A DNA stretch of 34,089 nucleotides from Minisyncoccota bacterium (GTDB lineage: Bacteria > Patescibacteriota > Minisyncoccia > Phycocordibacterales > CAIJYI01). The stretch spans positions 1-34,089 of the forward strand of contig JBAYGK010000001.1 of NCBI GenBank assembly GCA_041666665.1. The letters are read 5' to 3'. Shown here in pieces: positions 5,997 through 33,996 of this stretch. Made by a program: the position numbers and the translations under genes. The notes under the pieces are model-generated. The model was given only the letters and a program-made list of their open reading frames with translations, did no database searches and was not told where the DNA came from. How positions within the stretch are numbered: position 1 is the stretch's first letter; every line of letters begins with the position of its first letter.

Positions 5997-6030
5997 AAAA
6001 CCCTCTCCGTTATCCGTCGGAGAGGGTTTT
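5997..6030 (-). terminator. Intrinsic terminator after the permease (bidirectional shape)
   Basis: CCCTCTCCG-TTATCCGT-CGGAGAGGG (6001-6026), with TTTT on the plus strand and TTTTGTTTTTG on the minus strand. It lies 27 nt downstream of the permease stop. Confidence 0.7.
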
Positions 6031-8452: not shown

Positions 8453-8636
8453 TTAGGCGTCTTCCGTCAATAACTTGATATGGTTCGGTTTCAGATTTTC
8501 GTAAGATTTGATTTTTACGATTGAGTAAATGTTGAGCCGTAGCGAGCTACGGTGAAAGATTTGCGATTGAGTAAAAATCAAAGATTGCGGAAATCTGGAA
8601 GCGAAACGAGCAAGCTATTGACGGAAGACGCCTTAG
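8453..8636. repeat. Long-hairpin repeat family A, copy 1 (~184 nt imperfect palindrome)
   Basis: The outer stem 8455-8477 / 8611-8633 is 23 bp with one mismatch. The inner arms pair almost continuously to an apex CCGTAG-CGAG-CTACGG (8537-8552). The core 8484-8606 is repeated at 9587-9710. On the minus strand the hairpin is followed by AGATTTTTTATATT. Confidence 0.8.
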
Positions 8637-8779
8637 TTCGGCTCGTTCGTCGTGGCAAACATTTCCCGGTGCGTCTCAAAATAACGCGTTGAAAACACAA
8701 TGCTAAACAGCCCGAAAGCAATAATCCCCAAAAATCCGAAAAGAAACTTAAAAAACGTTTTATTGAAAAGGGGGGACAT
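8633..8779 (-). CDS. Hypothetical 48-aa hydrophobic peptide
   Basis: MSPLFNKTFFKFLFGFLGIIAFGLFSIVFSTRYFETHREMFATTNEPN, hand-translated, with a TAA stop at 8633-8635. TGTTATACT-ATAATC-ATG lies directly upstream. It is below the ORF-track cutoff and has no homology support. Confidence 0.4.
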   Translation of the reverse strand: MSPLFNKTFFKFLFGFLGIIAFGLFSIVFSTRYFETHREMFATTNEPN

Positions 8780-8827
8780 GATTATAGTATAACAAAGAAT
8801 GAGAAAGAAAGGGAGGGAAAGCCGTGC

Positions 8828-8971
8828 GACGAGTATAGGTATTTGGTATATGTATATGTATACGGACGAGTATCGTCATACCTATTACGAGTATAAGTAT
8901 TAGGTATATGTATATGTATACGGACGAGTATCGTCATACTTATACTTATACAAGATACATATACATCGTCC
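8828..8971. repeat. GTATA-rich repeat family B, copy 1 (58-bp unit in tandem x2 plus tail)
   Basis: Units 8830-8887 and 8888-8945 differ at about 5 positions (CGAGTATAGGTATTTGGTATATGTATATGTATACGGACGAGTATCGTCATACCTATTA). The tail runs 8946-8971. The imperfect terminal inverted repeats are GACGAGTATAGGTAT and ATACATATACATCGTCC. The element abuts the stop codon of the 195-aa gene. Confidence 0.8.
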
Positions 8972-9558
8972 TATATCATCTCAAACTCCCTGAACACATT
9001 TTCATAGAGTCTGACGACTTCTCTCGCTTGGTGCTTGGAGAGAAGAAACGATGATCCTTGGTGTGCGATGAAATTTCGGACTTTGTGCGCCTTCCATGCG
9101 TCGTCCAAAGTATTGAAATCGGAAATTTCCGCCTTTTTAAGCATCTCGCCGAGGGTCGCCCCCGAATACCCCATTTTTTTCACCATGGCCTCCAGCATCG
9201 CATCGGCTTCTATTATGGCAAGCTTCCACTCCGCCGGATTTTCGCTTTCCATGTATTTTTCCACCATTTGCCAGCGTTTTGATTTGACCTCTTCAAACCG
9301 GACACCGCGCGCGATGGTTTCTTTTTTTTGTTTCTTGCGGATTTCTCCCGTTTTCACCACCAGCATGACAATTCCGAAAAACAAAAGCGAGGAAATAAAA
9401 AATAGAAAAAATTGAAACATTAAAAAGAAATGGCTTGCGAGGAATTGGTGCCAAAAAGACGGCGGATTCTGAACAAAATCAGCAACACCTGAAATAACCG
9501 GCGAAAGATCGGCGTTTGACGAAGGCAAAGGAGAATATTGAAGAGTTGTTTGAGTCAT
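8971..9558 (-). CDS. Membrane-anchored protein with C-terminal HEPN-like (DUF4145-like) domain
   Basis: 195-aa ATG ORF with one TM helix (FFLMFQFFLFFISSLLFFGIVMLVV) followed by a basic stretch (KTGEIRKKQKK), which places the C-terminus in the cytoplasm. The C-terminal helical domain carries AWKAHKVRNFIAHQ, an R-x4-H motif with RN. Confidence 0.75.
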   Translation of the reverse strand: MTQTTLQYSPLPSSNADLSPVISGVADFVQNPPSFWHQFLASHFFLMFQFFLFFISSLLFFGIVMLVVKTGEIRKKQKKETIARGVRFEEVKSKRWQMVEKYMESENPAEWKLAIIEADAMLEAMVKKMGYSGATLGEMLKKAEISDFNTLDDAWKAHKVRNFIAHQGSSFLLSKHQAREVVRLYENVFREFEMI

Positions 9559-9559
9559 A

Positions 9560-9737
9560 AGGGGTTGGAAATAAATAAAGCATTCAGTTCGGTTTCAGAT
9601 TTTCGTAAGATTTGATTTTTACGATTGAGTAAATATTGAGGCATATCGGGATATGGTGAAAGATTTGCGATTGAGTAAAAATAAGAGATTGCGGAAAGAT
9701 GGAAGCGAAATGGATATTTTATTTATTTCCAACCCCT
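9560..9737. repeat. Long-hairpin repeat family A, copy 2
   Basis: The core 9587-9710 is nearly identical to 8484-8606. The outer stem AGGGGTTGGAAATAAATAAA (9560-9579) / TTTATTTATTTCCAACCCCT (9718-9737) is unrelated in sequence to the copy 1 stem but is again complementary. The apex is CATATC-GG-GATATG. Confidence 0.8.
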
Positions 9738-11175
9738 AACACCAAAAAAAACGCTTAGGATATATCCCGTCCGGCTTTGAATAATATTTCCTCAGCAAAA
9801 TGAGGGGCAATGAGGTGAAAGCCGAGGGGAAGTTCTTTTCCTCCTTCTGACACGGTGCCCGACGGAATGGAAATGGCGGGAAGGTCGGCAATGTTTGCGG
9901 TAACGGTAAAAATGTCCGCAAGATACATTTCCAGAGGGTCATTCGTTTTTCGCCGATTTTGAAAGCGGGCGAAGGCGTGGTCGGGGTGGCGATCAAATCA
10001 ACCTCTTTAAAAACCCGTTCAAAATCTTTTCGGATGAGCTTTCGCGCCTTCAAGGCATTTCGGTAATACGCATCGGCATATCCCGCGGAAAGCACGTATG
10101 TTCCGAGCAGAATGCGGCGCCGCGCCTCTTCTCCGAATCCTTGTGCCCTCGTTTTTTTGTATGAATCGCCCACATCGGAACCTTGGACGGAAAGACCGAA
10201 ACGAACCCCGTCAAAACGGGCGAGGTTGGAGGATACTTCCGCCGGCATGATGATGTAGTATGTGGCGAGAGAATATTTCATGTATGGAAGCGACACGTCA
10301 ACAATCTCATATCCGTTCTTTTTAAGTTTTTTGATCGTTTCTTCAAAATTCGCAAGTATGCGCGGATCAAGTCCTTTCATTTTGAGGAAATCGCGAGGAA
10401 CTCCGATCTTTATTTTTTTGTCCGCAGGGATGTTCGGGATAAGTTTTTCGGGCGTTGTCGTGCTGTCCATCGGATCGCATCCCCGGATAGCTTCAAATAC
10501 CGTTTTTGCGTCTTCAACCGTTTTGGTGAACGGTCCGATCTGATCAAGAGAAGAAGCCATCGCCATAAGACCGAAACGGGAAACGGCGCCGTAGGTCGGC
10601 TTCATTCCCACAATGCCGCAGAACGCCGCCGGCTGTCTGATGGAGCCGCCGGTATCCGAACCGAGCGCCGCGAGAGCCATATCTCCCGCAACCGCCGCCG
10701 CCGAACCGCCCGAGGAACCGCCCGGAACGCGACTGGTATCGCAAGGATTTTTCGTTTTTCCGTACGCGCTCGTTTCCGTGGAACTCCCCATCGCGAATTC
10801 GTCCATATTGGTGCGCCCGAGAAGCACCGCGCCCGCGGCTTTCAATTTGGCGATAACTGTCGCATCATAAGCGCCGAAATGTCCTTTTAGTATTTTTGAA
10901 GCGGAAGTGGATTCTTTGCCGAGGACAAGCATGTTGTCTTTCACCGCAATCGGAATTCCCGTCATCGCGCTTGCTTTTCCCGCCTGTATCATTTCATCCG
11001 CGCGCTTCGCCTGTTCCAACACGTCGTCAAAAACCTCAAGATATGCGAAAATCTCATCGTTCTTTTTCGCGATGTTGTCCAAATACGCTTGCGCGAGTTC
11101 AATTGCGGTGAAATCGCCCGCATCAAGATGTTTGCGAGCTTTGGCGATGGTAAGTTCTGTAAGATTTATATTCAT
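9736..11175 (-). CDS. gatA: Glu-tRNA(Gln)/Asp-tRNA(Asn) amidotransferase subunit A, with an apparent frameshift near the 3' end
   Basis: Amidase signature [12 protein letters not shown]. The start MNINLTELT is at 11175. After ...AFKIGEK the open frame becomes non-homologous junk. The -1 frame reads [63 protein letters not shown], a typical GatA C-terminus, ending at 9755-9757. Confidence 0.85.
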
Positions 11176-11180
11176 AAAAA

Positions 11181-11303
11181 TTCCAAATCCCAAATTACAA
11201 GTTCCAAATAAATTCCAAATAGTAAATTCAAAATTCCAAAGTTTGAGATTTTTTTATTTTTGAATTTAAAATTTATTTGGAACTTGAGATTTATTATTTG
11301 GTG
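11181..11303. repeat. Imperfect palindrome with TTCCAAA repeats filling the gatC-gatA spacer
   Basis: CAAGTTCCAAATAAATT (11198-11214) is the exact complement of 11270-11286. The inner stem is AAATTCAAAA (11224-11233) / TTTTGAATTT (11257-11266). TTCCAAA occurs at 11181, 11202, 11213 and 11234, and inverted at 11276. Confidence 0.6.
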
Positions 11304-12065: not shown

Positions 12066-12119
12066 CGCAATATTCAATTCCCTATTAATCTTGCGACCGC
12101 AAAATTAATAGGGAATTGA
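12066..12119. repeat. Palindrome family C, copy 1
   Basis: CGCAAT-ATTCAATTCCCTATTAATCTTGCG-ACC-GCAAAATTAATAGGGAATTGA. The stem is about 21 bp with one mismatch, and no T-run follows on either strand. Confidence 0.85.
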
Positions 12120-12190
12120 GGCAAAAAGAAAATTAGCATGAAAATGCTATTCCTACCGCCTCCGCATAAGAAGCGGTTCCTTAAATAGGT

Positions 12191-12760
12191 TTAATCCAAT
12201 TCAAAATATTTTCGCAAAGATTCATCACCTTCAATGTGTTTTGCCACGATGTAGAGAACCTCTTTTCCGATTTCAAATTCCGCCTTAAGCAAAGCAATCA
12301 CGTCTTCGCAATCATACGGAAAAATCCAAACGCTGTTTTGAAGTTTGATAAAACCGAAATTTTGCAATTCGCGCCGAATGCCGTCCCTTGTTTCTTTTTT
12401 GTATTCTTTAATATCAAATGCCACCACCCGCCAGCATTTGTCCCATTTCTTTTTCGTTAAAAGTTTTTCTTTTATTTTATAGCGTAAAAGTTCACTCTCT
12501 CCCTTCGGGGTAATACGAACGTAAGATTTTCCGTCTATTTTTTCAAACGTTATGTACCCGCTTTTCCGAAGTCGTTCCGTAGCCTGATTCATATAGTAAG
12601 GGGTCCAATGCCGCTTCTTTTTTCCGGCAAAAAGAGTAAGCGCTTGCACCGCATTCGGAGCAAGAACTCCAAAAGCAAGAATTCCGGTAATCGCCAATGT
12701 GCCAAGAATAATTCGCCGTATTTCGTCACGATTAACGCTTTCTCCCGTTATTTTTGTCAT
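12191..12760 (-). CDS. Membrane-anchored PaaX-like protein (winged-helix-like segment plus Cas2-like fold segment)
   Basis: TM helix IILGTLAITGILAFGVLAP. A wHTH-like stretch ATERLRKSGYITFEKIDGKSYVRITPKGESEL. Then WDKCWRVVAFDIKEYKKETRDGIRRELQNFGFIKLQNSVWIFPYD, the W..W.lv.fdIpe..r..R..lr..L...GF..L..SVW..P pattern of PaaX-family central domains. I prefer the start at 12760 (TGCTAAAAT-GACAGGT-ATG); the track start is 12769. Confidence 0.75.
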   Translation of the reverse strand: MTKITGESVNRDEIRRIILGTLAITGILAFGVLAPNAVQALTLFAGKKKRHWTPYYMNQATERLRKSGYITFEKIDGKSYVRITPKGESELLRYKIKEKLLTKKKWDKCWRVVAFDIKEYKKETRDGIRRELQNFGFIKLQNSVWIFPYDCEDVIALLKAEFEIGKEVLYIVAKHIEGDESLRKYFELD

Positions 12761-12781
12761 ACCTGTCATTTTAGCACACCA

Positions 12782-12832
12782 CGCAATAATTCCCTATTAA
12801 TCTTGCGACCGCAAGATTAATAGGGAATTATT
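12782..12832. repeat. Palindrome family C, copy 2
   Basis: CGCAAT-AATTCCCTATTAATCTTGCG-ACC-GCAAGATTAATAGGGAATTATT. The 22-bp stem is perfect, and the centre has the same orientation as in copy 1. Confidence 0.85.
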
Positions 12833-12853
12833 GATATGAAAAACTCTAATTTT

Positions 12854-15710: not shown

Positions 15711-15750
15711 TACAGAGGGCATCCCTCTGTACATAGGGATGCCCTCTGTA
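15711..15750 (-). terminator. Hairpin downstream of pilD (probable terminator)
   Basis: TACAGAGGGCATCCC (15711-15725) / GGGATGCCCTCTGTA (15736-15750), a 15-bp stem. On the minus strand it is followed by AAATTTTCTC, a weak T tract. Confidence 0.55.
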
Positions 15751-33782: not shown

Positions 33783-33870
33783 GGAGAGGTGGGTGAGCTG
33801 GTCGAAACCACCACACTGCTAACGTGGCAGGGAGTAAAATCCCTCGAGGGTTCGAATCCCTCCCTCTCCG
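33783..33870 (+). tRNA. tRNA-Ser (anticodon GCU), type II with long variable arm; CCA not encoded
   Basis: Hand-folded. The acceptor is GGAGAGG/CCTCTCC and the D-arm has A14 and G18G19. The anticodon stem CCACA/CGTGG closes the loop CTGCTAA. The variable arm is AGGGA-GTAAAA-TCCCT, the T-arm GAGGG-TTCGAAT-CCCTC, and the discriminator is G. Confidence 0.9.
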
Positions 33871-33913
33871 CAAATACAAAAATAGCCTTCTTTTAAGGCT
33901 ATTTTTGTATTTG
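33871..33913 (+). terminator. Long hairpin immediately after the tRNA
   Basis: CAAATACAAAAATAGCCTT-CTTTT-AAGGCTATTTTTGTATTTG, a 19-bp stem with a T-rich descending arm. Confidence 0.55.
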
Positions 33914-33996
33914 ACGGAGAGGAGCGACTGAACTGCTTCAGTCGCGTGAGGGATTTGAAGGGGTTGAATAGACCTGCCCCACAATAACAAATCGCC

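Follow-up and report, generated by a model that had tools for sequence, protein, structure and literature searches.

A short hairpin repeat in a CPR bacterium has the structural hallmarks of a MITE and keeps only one strand foldable

Two long hairpin repeats in a Paceibacterota (CPR) genome are probably copies of a non-autonomous DNA transposon (MITE) of 176-178 bp, inserted twice within the 34,089-nucleotide stretch of DNA analysed here, which is called the window throughout. Terminal inverted repeats (TIRs), 3-bp target-site duplications, empty sites in relatives and further copies at unrelated loci together lead to this reading. Structurally the element lacks none of the hallmarks of a MITE, an ordinary kind of mobile DNA, yet it matches no described one. 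A sequence-only reading of the window had named a match of the core to a known MITE or insertion-sequence end as a result that would count against its proposals; this has come about in spirit, through the hallmarks, but not in the letter, as no described MITE is matched. What is unusual, but real, is that only one strand of the element is kept foldable.

The two copies share a direct repeat of 124 nt (8483-8606 and 9587-9710), 91% identical between them, which is the core of an element that measures 177 bp in copy 1 (8456-8632) and 176 bp in copy 2 (9561-9736); each copy forms a hairpin of about 85 pairs. The internal direct repeats of the core, first pointed out along with the shared core from the window alone, stand as described: CGATTGAGTAAA occurs twice in each copy, and a 21-mer that includes it is confined within the window to these two sites, against a chance expectation of 0. 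Around the imperfectly palindromic core lie TIRs of 20-23 bp that open 5'-GG(G/C/A)G and whose two arms, in any one copy, are complementary at 95% or more of their positions; the outer inverted repeats extend over 23 nt in copy 1 (8455-8477 and 8611-8633, 96% complementary) and consist in copy 2 of GGGGTTGGAAATAAATAAAG and its complement. The element, 176-178 bp over the copies, has no coding capacity: no reading frame is open across its entire length in all copies, and the peptide of a stretch of about 44 codons that is open across the core in all copies is without match among 5.8 billion predicted proteins. The parts of the two window copies are as follows.

8453-8455: left target-site duplication of copy 1, TTA on the plus strand and TAA on the gene strand; same triplet at 8633-8635
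8456-8477, plus strand: left TIR of copy 1, a B-type arm, GGCGTCTTCCGTCAATAACTTG, 96% complementary to 8611-8632
8483-8606, plus strand: core of copy 1, imperfectly palindromic, 91% identical to 9587-9710
8519-8524 and 8565-8570, plus strand: GATTGA strands of the symmetric loop of copy 1
8538-8551, plus strand: apex hairpin of copy 1
8611-8632, plus strand: right TIR of copy 1
8633-8635: right target-site duplication of copy 1, on the minus strand the TAA stop codon of a conserved 48-aa ORF (8633-8779)
8971-9558, minus strand: 195-aa gene, the A of whose ATG is overlapped by the left duplication of copy 2
9558-9560: left target-site duplication of copy 2, TAA on the plus strand and TTA on the gene strand; same triplet at 9737-9739
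9561-9580, plus strand: left TIR of copy 2, an A-type arm, GGGGTTGGAAATAAATAAAG, complementary to 9717-9736
9587-9710, plus strand: core of copy 2, with GATTGA loop strands at 9623-9628 and 9669-9674
9717-9736, plus strand: right TIR of copy 2
9737-9739: right target-site duplication of copy 2, TAA on the plus strand

Both window copies lie in very short intergenic spacers, copy 1 on the TAA stop of the 48-codon ORF and copy 2 inserted between the TT and the ATG of TTATG, the start of the 195-aa gene. Eight more copies are present at unrelated loci in another metagenome, six of them with matching TWA flanks, for a total of ten copies at ten loci; eight of the ten are full, and two contigs terminate inside the element. 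Every copy has GG at its 5' end. The direct repeat that flanks it is 3 bp long and reads TTA or TAA: in seven of the eight full copies the TWA triplets to left and right are identical, the exception being the copy in L019, which has D-type arms and no TWA duplication.

Filled and empty sites can be compared cleanly in two cases, and in both TAA is single when the site is empty. On the gene strand copy 1 reads AAC-TAA-[GGCGTC...GACGCC]-TAA-AGATTTT, and the empty site in L026, the closest relative, reads GAT-TAA-AGATTTC; L002 reads TAAGG-TAA-[GGAGTGG...CCACTCC]-TAA-TCAAAGGAGAG, and the empty site in L019 reads CAAGA-TAA-TCAAGGGAGAG. The empty sites of copy 2, GATGTATGG in L026 and AATTATGCC in L027, follow the same pattern with an ambiguity of 1 nt. 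Arms are absent from both sites in L026, and the 3-bp duplication encloses arms and core as one unit; the comparison of L002 with L019 likewise places the duplication outside the arms, none of which is found at the empty site. These observations bear directly on the suggestion, made from the window, that a core of about 123 nt is itself the mobile unit, its targets being the loops of hairpins already present in the host. The genome could offer such a unit many targets in the form of long perfect hairpins between genes, and the arms of the window copies share 42% ungapped identity against 91% for the cores. The suggestion is nevertheless highly improbable, being contradicted by the armless empty sites in L026 and L019, by the position of the TAA duplication outside the arms, by the occurrence of the same A-type arms (83-96% identical) in six copies at six different loci, by the mutual homology of all arm types, and by the absence of an arms-only hairpin of any type from the loci searched.

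The two copies had also been said to bracket a small gene module. The bracketing is coincidental, as the order gatA, 195-aa gene, 48-aa ORF, permease is kept in every syntenic relative, none of which has either copy. The syntenic relatives read comprise six variants of the 195-aa protein on 11 contigs, in which a covariance model of the element finds no copy and the gap from gatA to the 195-aa gene is 8-29 nt. A composite transposon with the 195-aa and 48-aa genes as its cargo is ruled out by this independence of gene order from the copies.

The arms of all ten copies sort into four homologous types, distinguished from one another by substitutions and by a mirrored indel of 4 nt.

Arm type A: GGGGTCGTAAATAAATAAAG
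Arm type B: GGCGTCTTCCGTCAATAACTTG
Arm type C: GGGGCCTTCCGTAAATAAATTCC
Arm type D: GGGGCTTATCCGTTAAAAACTTG

The A-type arm of copy 2 recurs in L002, L005, L007, L012 and L018. Between types, ungapped identity is 42-51%, against 85-93% for the core, a figure that is biased upward, above all for the GATTGA loops, because the copies outside the window were fetched by a pattern demanding both 12-mers intact. The outer stems had been taken as unrelated to each other, a view that did not survive the addition of the eight extra copies: judged by their sequences, they are the element's own diverged TIRs and not pre-existing hairpins. Since the two window copies have different arm types, they are independent insertions, and the lower conservation of the arms suggests that the main constraint is on the core. 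Arms that vary more than the core are the reverse of what is seen in most MITE families.

Pairing within the element is conserved by change on both sides of the helix. Compensated pairs number 18 of 69, and 98.7% of alignment cells are paired; none of 500 shuffles reaches the observed values, and when the 3' partners are slid by 1-3 columns pairing falls to 42-54%. The earlier claim that the fold is maintained by covariation is thereby borne out, including the two double compensatory changes that separate the window copies at the apex (alignment columns 90/101 and 93/98). In the consensus fold, each of the four T.G positions noted earlier in copy 1 forms a G.U pair (columns 32/159, 42/149, 50/141 and 53/138), and a fifth G.U pair lies at columns 77/114. 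The internal loops of the plus strand are GA/GA and GAUUGA/GAUUGA, the latter with two-fold symmetry.

As had been argued from copy 1, the non-Watson-Crick pairs point to the plus strand: G.U pairs occupy 58 cells at 19 positions on that strand, and A.C pairs 3 cells at 3 positions (binomial p = 8.6e-4). When both strands of both copies are folded as RNA, the plus-strand cores reach -60.6 kcal/mol in copy 1 (z = -11.2) and -38.1 kcal/mol in copy 2 (z = -6.5), the minus-strand cores -29.0 and -7.3 kcal/mol; for the whole elements the values are -96.7 vs -68.4 kcal/mol in copy 1 (8456-8632) and -71.6 vs -37.3 kcal/mol in copy 2. The plus strand is better by 28-38 kcal/mol in all eight full copies, and DNA energy parameters give the same asymmetry. 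The asymmetry is peculiar to this element: elsewhere in the window, long hairpins are perfect palindromes that are alike on both strands. Deamination, or another mutational origin of the G.U bias, was considered and rejected: the one-sided changes on the plus strand mix C>T and A>G, the negative GC skew of the window, with its genes on the minus strand, predicts the opposite bias, and the neighbouring hairpins are strand-symmetric. A further constraint, acting on one strand only, would keep the G/U-rich plus strand foldable, in RNA or in single-stranded DNA, as a near-continuous helix of about 85 pairs that makes use of G.U, U.U and tandem G.A pairs.

Strong covariation, an excess of G.U over A.C pairs, a plus strand that folds better in every full copy, conserved tandem GA/GA and symmetric GAUUGA/GAUUGA loops and a core conserved above its arms would all suit an element that is primarily a structured non-coding RNA gene, present in several copies on the plus strand, antisense to its neighbours, and mobile only incidentally or in the distant past. 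Such a gene is unlikely here, given the inverted repeats of the element, its target duplications and its empty sites, and given that no promoter-like site lies on the plus strand in or beside it and no U-tract follows the plus-strand hairpin, that no Rfam entry matches, and that the search pattern exaggerates how well the loops are conserved; the asymmetry obtained with DNA parameters also means that RNA is not required. An RNA role fits as a layer added to the MITE reading, not as a replacement for it. The strand asymmetry is likewise the one point in favour of an RNA-mediated, retro-mobile hairpin, whose plus-strand RNA intermediate would explain selection on pairing, and this is most improbable for an element of fixed length with exact inverted termini, no 3' tail and no 5' truncations, in a neighbourhood without a reverse transcriptase.

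A palindrome mobilised as a single strand, that is, a REPIN (RAYT) or an IS200/IS605-derived PATE on whose folded plus strand a Y1/HUH enzyme acts, would also account for a strand-specific, compensated fold that is better with DNA parameters too. REPINs are long, non-autonomous hairpin repeats of intergenic DNA in which compensatory changes preserve the stem (PMC3116915), and in this the present element is like them. It is very unlikely to be one, as REPIN and PATE families leave no target duplication, whereas here 3 bp are duplicated and the empty sites match; in REPINs the ends are conserved and the middle varies, contrary to the arrangement here; and REPINs depend on a Y1 transposase, no gene for which lies nearby.

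The MITE reading is most at home with a different group of transposases. GG termini with a TWA duplication are a signature of the short-duplication subgroups of IS5 and of the related PIF/Harbinger superfamily; the ISfinder family table gives duplication lengths and GG ends for the IS5 subgroups. GG ends, gene-adjacent insertion and a whole element that can fold as a hairpin are common to PIF/Harbinger-type MITEs and IS5 subgroups. The present element is likewise short and non-coding with GG TIRs, as are PIF/Harbinger MITEs (Tourist-like, mPing) and IS5 relatives (IS1031, IS427, ISL2), and like both groups it has a 3-bp TTA/TAA duplication. PIF/Harbinger elements are defined by TIRs and a 3-bp duplication (PMC2213677). 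The present element differs from both groups in having arms more variable than its core and a CPR bacterium as host. Its GG ends and TWA duplication, as expected for an IS5-family or PIF/Harbinger derivative, suggest that it may be mobilised by a DDE transposase of this type. Such a transposase, acting in trans, would cut TWA with a 3-nt stagger and then integrate the element, and the paired changes in the two arms may partly reflect the need of both ends to fit the same transposase. Pfam finds no transposase among the genes of the window, and none was found on the 43-kb source contig. In about 250 kb of fetched loci these inverted repeats bound neither a solo element nor a long one, and the fetched loci (about 250 kb by arm scan, about 420 kb by covariance model) yielded no autonomous partner.

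Comparison with other intergenic palindromes sets the element further apart. ERIC effects are orientation-dependent. Correia elements of Neisseria and ERIC/IRU of enterobacteria are MITE-like palindromes between genes, about 100-160 bp long, which like the present element combine inverted repeats with a conserved core; they are transcribed together with adjacent genes, and the hairpins formed in the RNA influence mRNA processing, in Correia elements through RNase III (PMC2649163). The present element has no sequence similarity to either, duplicates TWA where Correia elements duplicate TA, and has a markedly one-stranded fold, with G.U and G.A pairs throughout. Integron attC sites are also imperfect palindromes, acting strand-specifically as a folded single strand, but they have conserved outer boxes (R and L, at the stem base) around a variable centre, lie in cassette arrays beside an integrase and lack a 3-bp duplication; here the base of the stem is variable and the copies are isolated between housekeeping genes, so that the earlier judgement against attC holds.

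Searches for further copies and relatives returned little. A scan of a collection of genome contigs for CGATTGAGTAAA-N24-44-CGATTGAGTAAA gave one unrelated tandem repeat only; in viral contigs the 3'-arm pattern and the A-type inverted repeat each gave 0 matches and the 5'-arm pattern 9 chance matches, none of which fits the covariance model; plasmid and phage collections (blastn) gave no match; and the covariance model, run on the window with filters off, found no further copies, only unrelated perfect hairpins. No Rfam family matches the hairpins at gathering threshold, and permissive E-values bring up only long-hairpin microRNA precursor models, at 20-35 bits against thresholds of 60-195 bits. 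No description of a MITE in CPR bacteria was found in the literature searched.

For six copies (copies 1 and 2, L005, L018, L002 and L019) the flanking genes allow their place in a transcription unit to be inferred, and in each of the six the strand that folds strongly is antisense; over all ten copies orientation is 7 antisense vs 3 sense, which is not significant. A strong hairpin in a transcript would be selected against and such insertions lost, so that the surviving copies in operons and 16S would carry the weak, C/A-rich strand as sense. The L019 copy is apparently inside a 16S rRNA gene, in helix 44; as Rfam reports no SSU rRNA in L019, this context rests on two universal motifs recognised in the sequence. 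A further reading, which we regard as doubtful, is that the G/U-rich core is a functional single-stranded module carried by the transposon, a helix of about 85 pairs in RNA or single-stranded DNA. If it is true, the core would be selected more strongly than the ends and could be grafted onto diverged end pairs, the symmetric GAUUGA/GAUUGA loop with tandem G.A pairs could be recognised by a dimeric protein, and helix 44 of a 16S rRNA gene appears to have put up with one copy.

Genomes of CPR/Patescibacteria measure about 1 Mb, are tightly packed and contain little mobile DNA. The present family is polymorphic between co-occurring relatives and thus marks recent transposition in CPR; it also breaks assemblies, and could pass for a small-RNA gene or an attC-like site. 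It further shows how spacers of 8-30 nt can accommodate a 177-bp palindrome: insertions have hit a stop codon, a start codon, the space that separates toxin from antitoxin genes and, apparently, a 16S rRNA helix. Its one-stranded fold and the orientation of its copies offer a natural test between selection against hairpins in transcripts and an RNA or single-stranded DNA function in the interior of a MITE.

The two hairpin repeats reported by the sequence-only reading are real. A 124-nt direct repeat, 91% identical between its two sites in the window, is enclosed in both cases by a longer inverted repeat, and a 21-mer of its core (the conserved, imperfectly palindromic middle) occurs in the window only at these two sites, with a chance expectation of 0.

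8456-8632, strong fold on + strand: hairpin element, copy 1 (direct repeat 8483-8606)
9561-9736, strong fold on + strand: hairpin element, copy 2 (direct repeat 9587-9710)

Folded as RNA, the core of copy 1 reaches -60.6 kcal/mol on the + strand (z = -11.2) versus -29.0 on the - strand, and that of copy 2 reaches -38.1 kcal/mol (z = -6.5) versus -7.3; the asymmetry is the same with DNA parameters. For the entire copy 1 element the values are -96.7 kcal/mol (+ strand) and -68.4 kcal/mol (- strand).

Further copies, for which a search had been suggested, exist beyond the window. A metagenome collection searched with a pattern of two core 12-mers at their observed spacing yielded 22 loci, 8 of them true homologues from metagenome Ga0172379 (L002, L003, L005, L007, L012, L015, L018 and L019); in L003 and L015 the contig end truncates the element internally. 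No match to the element was found in Rfam, in viral contigs or in plasmid and phage collections. Alignment of eight full copies, from which a covariance model was built, gave a consensus hairpin of 69 pairs with compensatory changes at 18 and 98.7% of cells paired. None of 500 column shuffles reached the observed values on any of five measures, and sliding the 3' partners by 1-3 columns left only 42-54% paired. Covariation thus maintains the fold, as had been claimed, and the alignment and consensus structure confirm both the apex compensatory changes between the window copies and all four T.G positions assigned to copy 1. The remaining 14 loci are tandem repeats unrelated to the element. Five unrelated arrays of tandem repeats with periods of 39-43 nt (L001:8-60, L004, L011:3545-3807, L013 and L021), from metagenome and genome contigs, have CGA(T/C)TGAGTAAAA beside a small hairpin in every unit and no Rfam match; the search pattern may have picked them up by chance, or they may represent a tandem-repeat RNA not yet described.

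The host belongs to Candidatus Paceibacterota (CPR bacteria), and the source contig is 43 kb long (L024, L025). Contigs encoding homologues of the 195-aa protein that lies between the two copies all share the order gatC, gatA, 195-aa gene, 48-aa ORF, permease, the gap from gatA to the 195-aa gene is only 8-29 nt, and in none of them did the covariance model find a copy. The supposed module bracketed by the repeats is therefore ordinary conserved synteny, copy-free in relatives.

Filled and empty insertion sites, gene strand.
Copy 1, filled: GAGCCGAAC-TAA-[GGCGTC...GACGCC]-TAA-AGATTTT
Copy 1, empty (relative L026): GAGGCGGAT-TAA-AGATTTC
Copy 2, filled: GGTG-TTA-[GGGG...CCCC]-TTA-TGACT
Copy 2, empty (relatives L026; L027): GATGTATGGCT; GAATTATGCC
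L002, filled: CCCCTAAGG-TAA-[GGAGTGG...CCACTCC]-TAA-TCAAAGGAGAG
L002, empty (L019): CCCCCAAGA-TAA-TCAAGGGAGAG

The same T(T/A)A stands on both sides of 7 of the 8 full copies, and is a duplication rather than part of the stem because at the middle base the two sides are always identical, as in a direct repeat, and not complementary. At copy 1 the conserved 48-aa ORF terminates with the target TAA; copy 2 fits a TTA target overlapping the ATG of the 195-aa gene, with a 1-nt ambiguity relative to L026. From these sites and the duplication it follows that the mobile unit is arms plus core (177 bp for copy 1, 176 bp for copy 2), and that copies 1 and 2, whose arm types differ, are independent events. 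Insertion into pre-existing hairpins is contradicted, since the target sites contain none.

The element is very probably a new family of MITEs (small non-coding, non-autonomous transposons) in a CPR bacterium. It has every structural hallmark of one: its ends are inverted repeats, its flanking duplication has a fixed length of 3 bp, relatives have empty sites, and it is small, lacks coding capacity and occupies multiple unrelated loci. No reading frame stays open across the full element in every copy, and the single ~44-codon stretch that does stay open has no counterpart in the protein database. A TTA/TAA duplication next to GG termini is characteristic of PIF/Harbinger transposons (PMC2213677). 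No cognate transposase was found in the window, the 43-kb source contig or the fetched loci, and no description of MITEs in CPR bacteria was found in the literature. The same termini and duplication also fit the short-duplication subgroups of the related bacterial IS5 family (ISfinder family table).

The outer stems, which had been read as unrelated, resolve with the additional copies into four arm types with common blocks GG(G/C/A)G, CCGT and AATAA, distinguished by substitutions and a 4-nt indel mirrored in both arms.

Arm type A: GGGGTCGTAAATAAATAAAG
Arm type B: GGCGTCTTCCGTCAATAACTTG
Arm type C: GGGGCCTTCCGTAAATAAATTCC
Arm type D: GGGGCTTATCCGTTAAAAACTTG

Ungapped identity between types is 42-51% in the arms versus 85-93% in the core, a contrast that is partly ascertainment (the search pattern demanded both 12-mers intact) and that is also present between the two window copies, a pair not picked by that search. 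Arms that diverge faster than the core are the reverse of most MITE families. Matched changes at the two ends are expected if one transposase must fit both; this cannot explain the apex compensations.

Asymmetry between the strands extends to all eight full copies, the + strand fold being better by 28-38 kcal/mol in each. Among 552 pair cells, 487 are Watson-Crick and 58 are G.U on the + strand (19 pair positions), versus only 3 A.C (3 positions; binomial p = 8.6e-4). The + strand internal loops are purine-rich and stable, comprising an invariant GA/GA, a second GA/GA that alternates with Watson-Crick GA/UC, and a two-fold symmetric GAUUGA/GAUUGA; the same positions on the - strand are C.A, UC/UC and similar mismatches. 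One-sided changes are a mixture of C>T and A>G, window skew and gene orientation predict a mutational bias opposite to that observed, and other long hairpins of the window form perfect, strand-symmetric stems. This makes the asymmetry a property of the element itself, for which the simplest explanation is selection on one folded strand, be it RNA or ssDNA.

Those symmetric intergenic hairpins (812-889, 33858-33927, 15711-15750 and 5997-6030), with up to ~33 consecutive pairs, look like bidirectional terminators and differ in this symmetry from the MITE, whose fold favours one strand. Another hairpin repeat, unrelated to the element, consists of two near-identical perfect palindromes (12068-12125 and 12780-12837, core AATTCCCTATTAATCTTGCGACCGCAAGATTAATAGGGAATT) flanking a PaaX/Cas2-like-domain gene (12191-12769). 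A hypervariable spacer separates the 195-aa gene from the 48-aa ORF (window 8829-8943; L026:10652-10752; L027:1046-1170): in the window a 57-nt unit rich in GTATATGTATAC palindromes occurs twice in tandem, close relatives have a different inverted repeat of ~100 nt with units AATTTCTAATTTCCAAT, and more distant relatives have only ~35-50 nt. At 9945 the window has a 1-nt deletion relative to the otherwise 99.985% identical L024 and L025; it breaks gatA, which those contigs carry as a complete 473-aa ORF, into two frames (9736-11193 and 9755-9928, - strand) and probably stems from assembly or from a difference between strains.

For 6 copies the flanking genes allow a position inside a transcription unit to be inferred, and in every one of them the strongly folding strand runs antisense to transcription: both window copies and L005, each with co-directional genes on either side, L018 with an AbiEi-like gene on one side and an AbiEii toxin gene on the other, L002 within an rRNA-gene insertion, and L019 within a 16S rRNA gene. 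At transcription-unit edges the picture is mixed (L015 sense just after atpC, L012 and L007 sense upstream of genes, L003 antisense), and the total of 7 antisense versus 3 sense is not significant. In L018 (1031-1218) the copy has taken the place of the final few codons of the upstream gene, and that gene now stops at a TAA within the inverted repeat; stop codons in all three frames are supplied by TAAATAAATAAA, the A-type repeat. The D-type copy of L019 (reverse strand, ~1290-1565), which lies in the weak-fold orientation and lacks a TWA (TTA or TAA) duplication, is flanked by CGCCCGTCAC and GAAGTCGTAACAAGG, which we take to be universal 16S rRNA motifs and which would therefore place it inside helix 44; Rfam gave no SSU rRNA match on this contig, whose ends overlap, making it either circularised or a collapsed repeat. 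After ...AACAAGG, both L019 and L002 (1-150) have an intron-like insertion coding for proteins of 199-201 aa and 85-87 aa, within which the L002 copy is located.

The duplication and termini suggest that a DDE transposase acting in trans would insert the element into TWA sites, with a stagger of 3 nt, and the element would survive where harm is small. Where the strong G/U-rich hairpin ended up in mRNA or rRNA, the insertion would be purged, for example because transcription terminates, RNase III cuts the transcript or translation is blocked, so that the weak strand would be the one present in transcripts. ERIC elements act on transcripts in like manner. Such hairpin effects on transcripts are described for Correia elements (PMC2649163), a parallel to the purging proposed here. 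The strand-specific fold and conserved core of this MITE are real; the strong strand may be kept foldable because it takes part in transposition, because it works as a terminator or stabiliser where transcription units end, or because it has an RNA function of its own.
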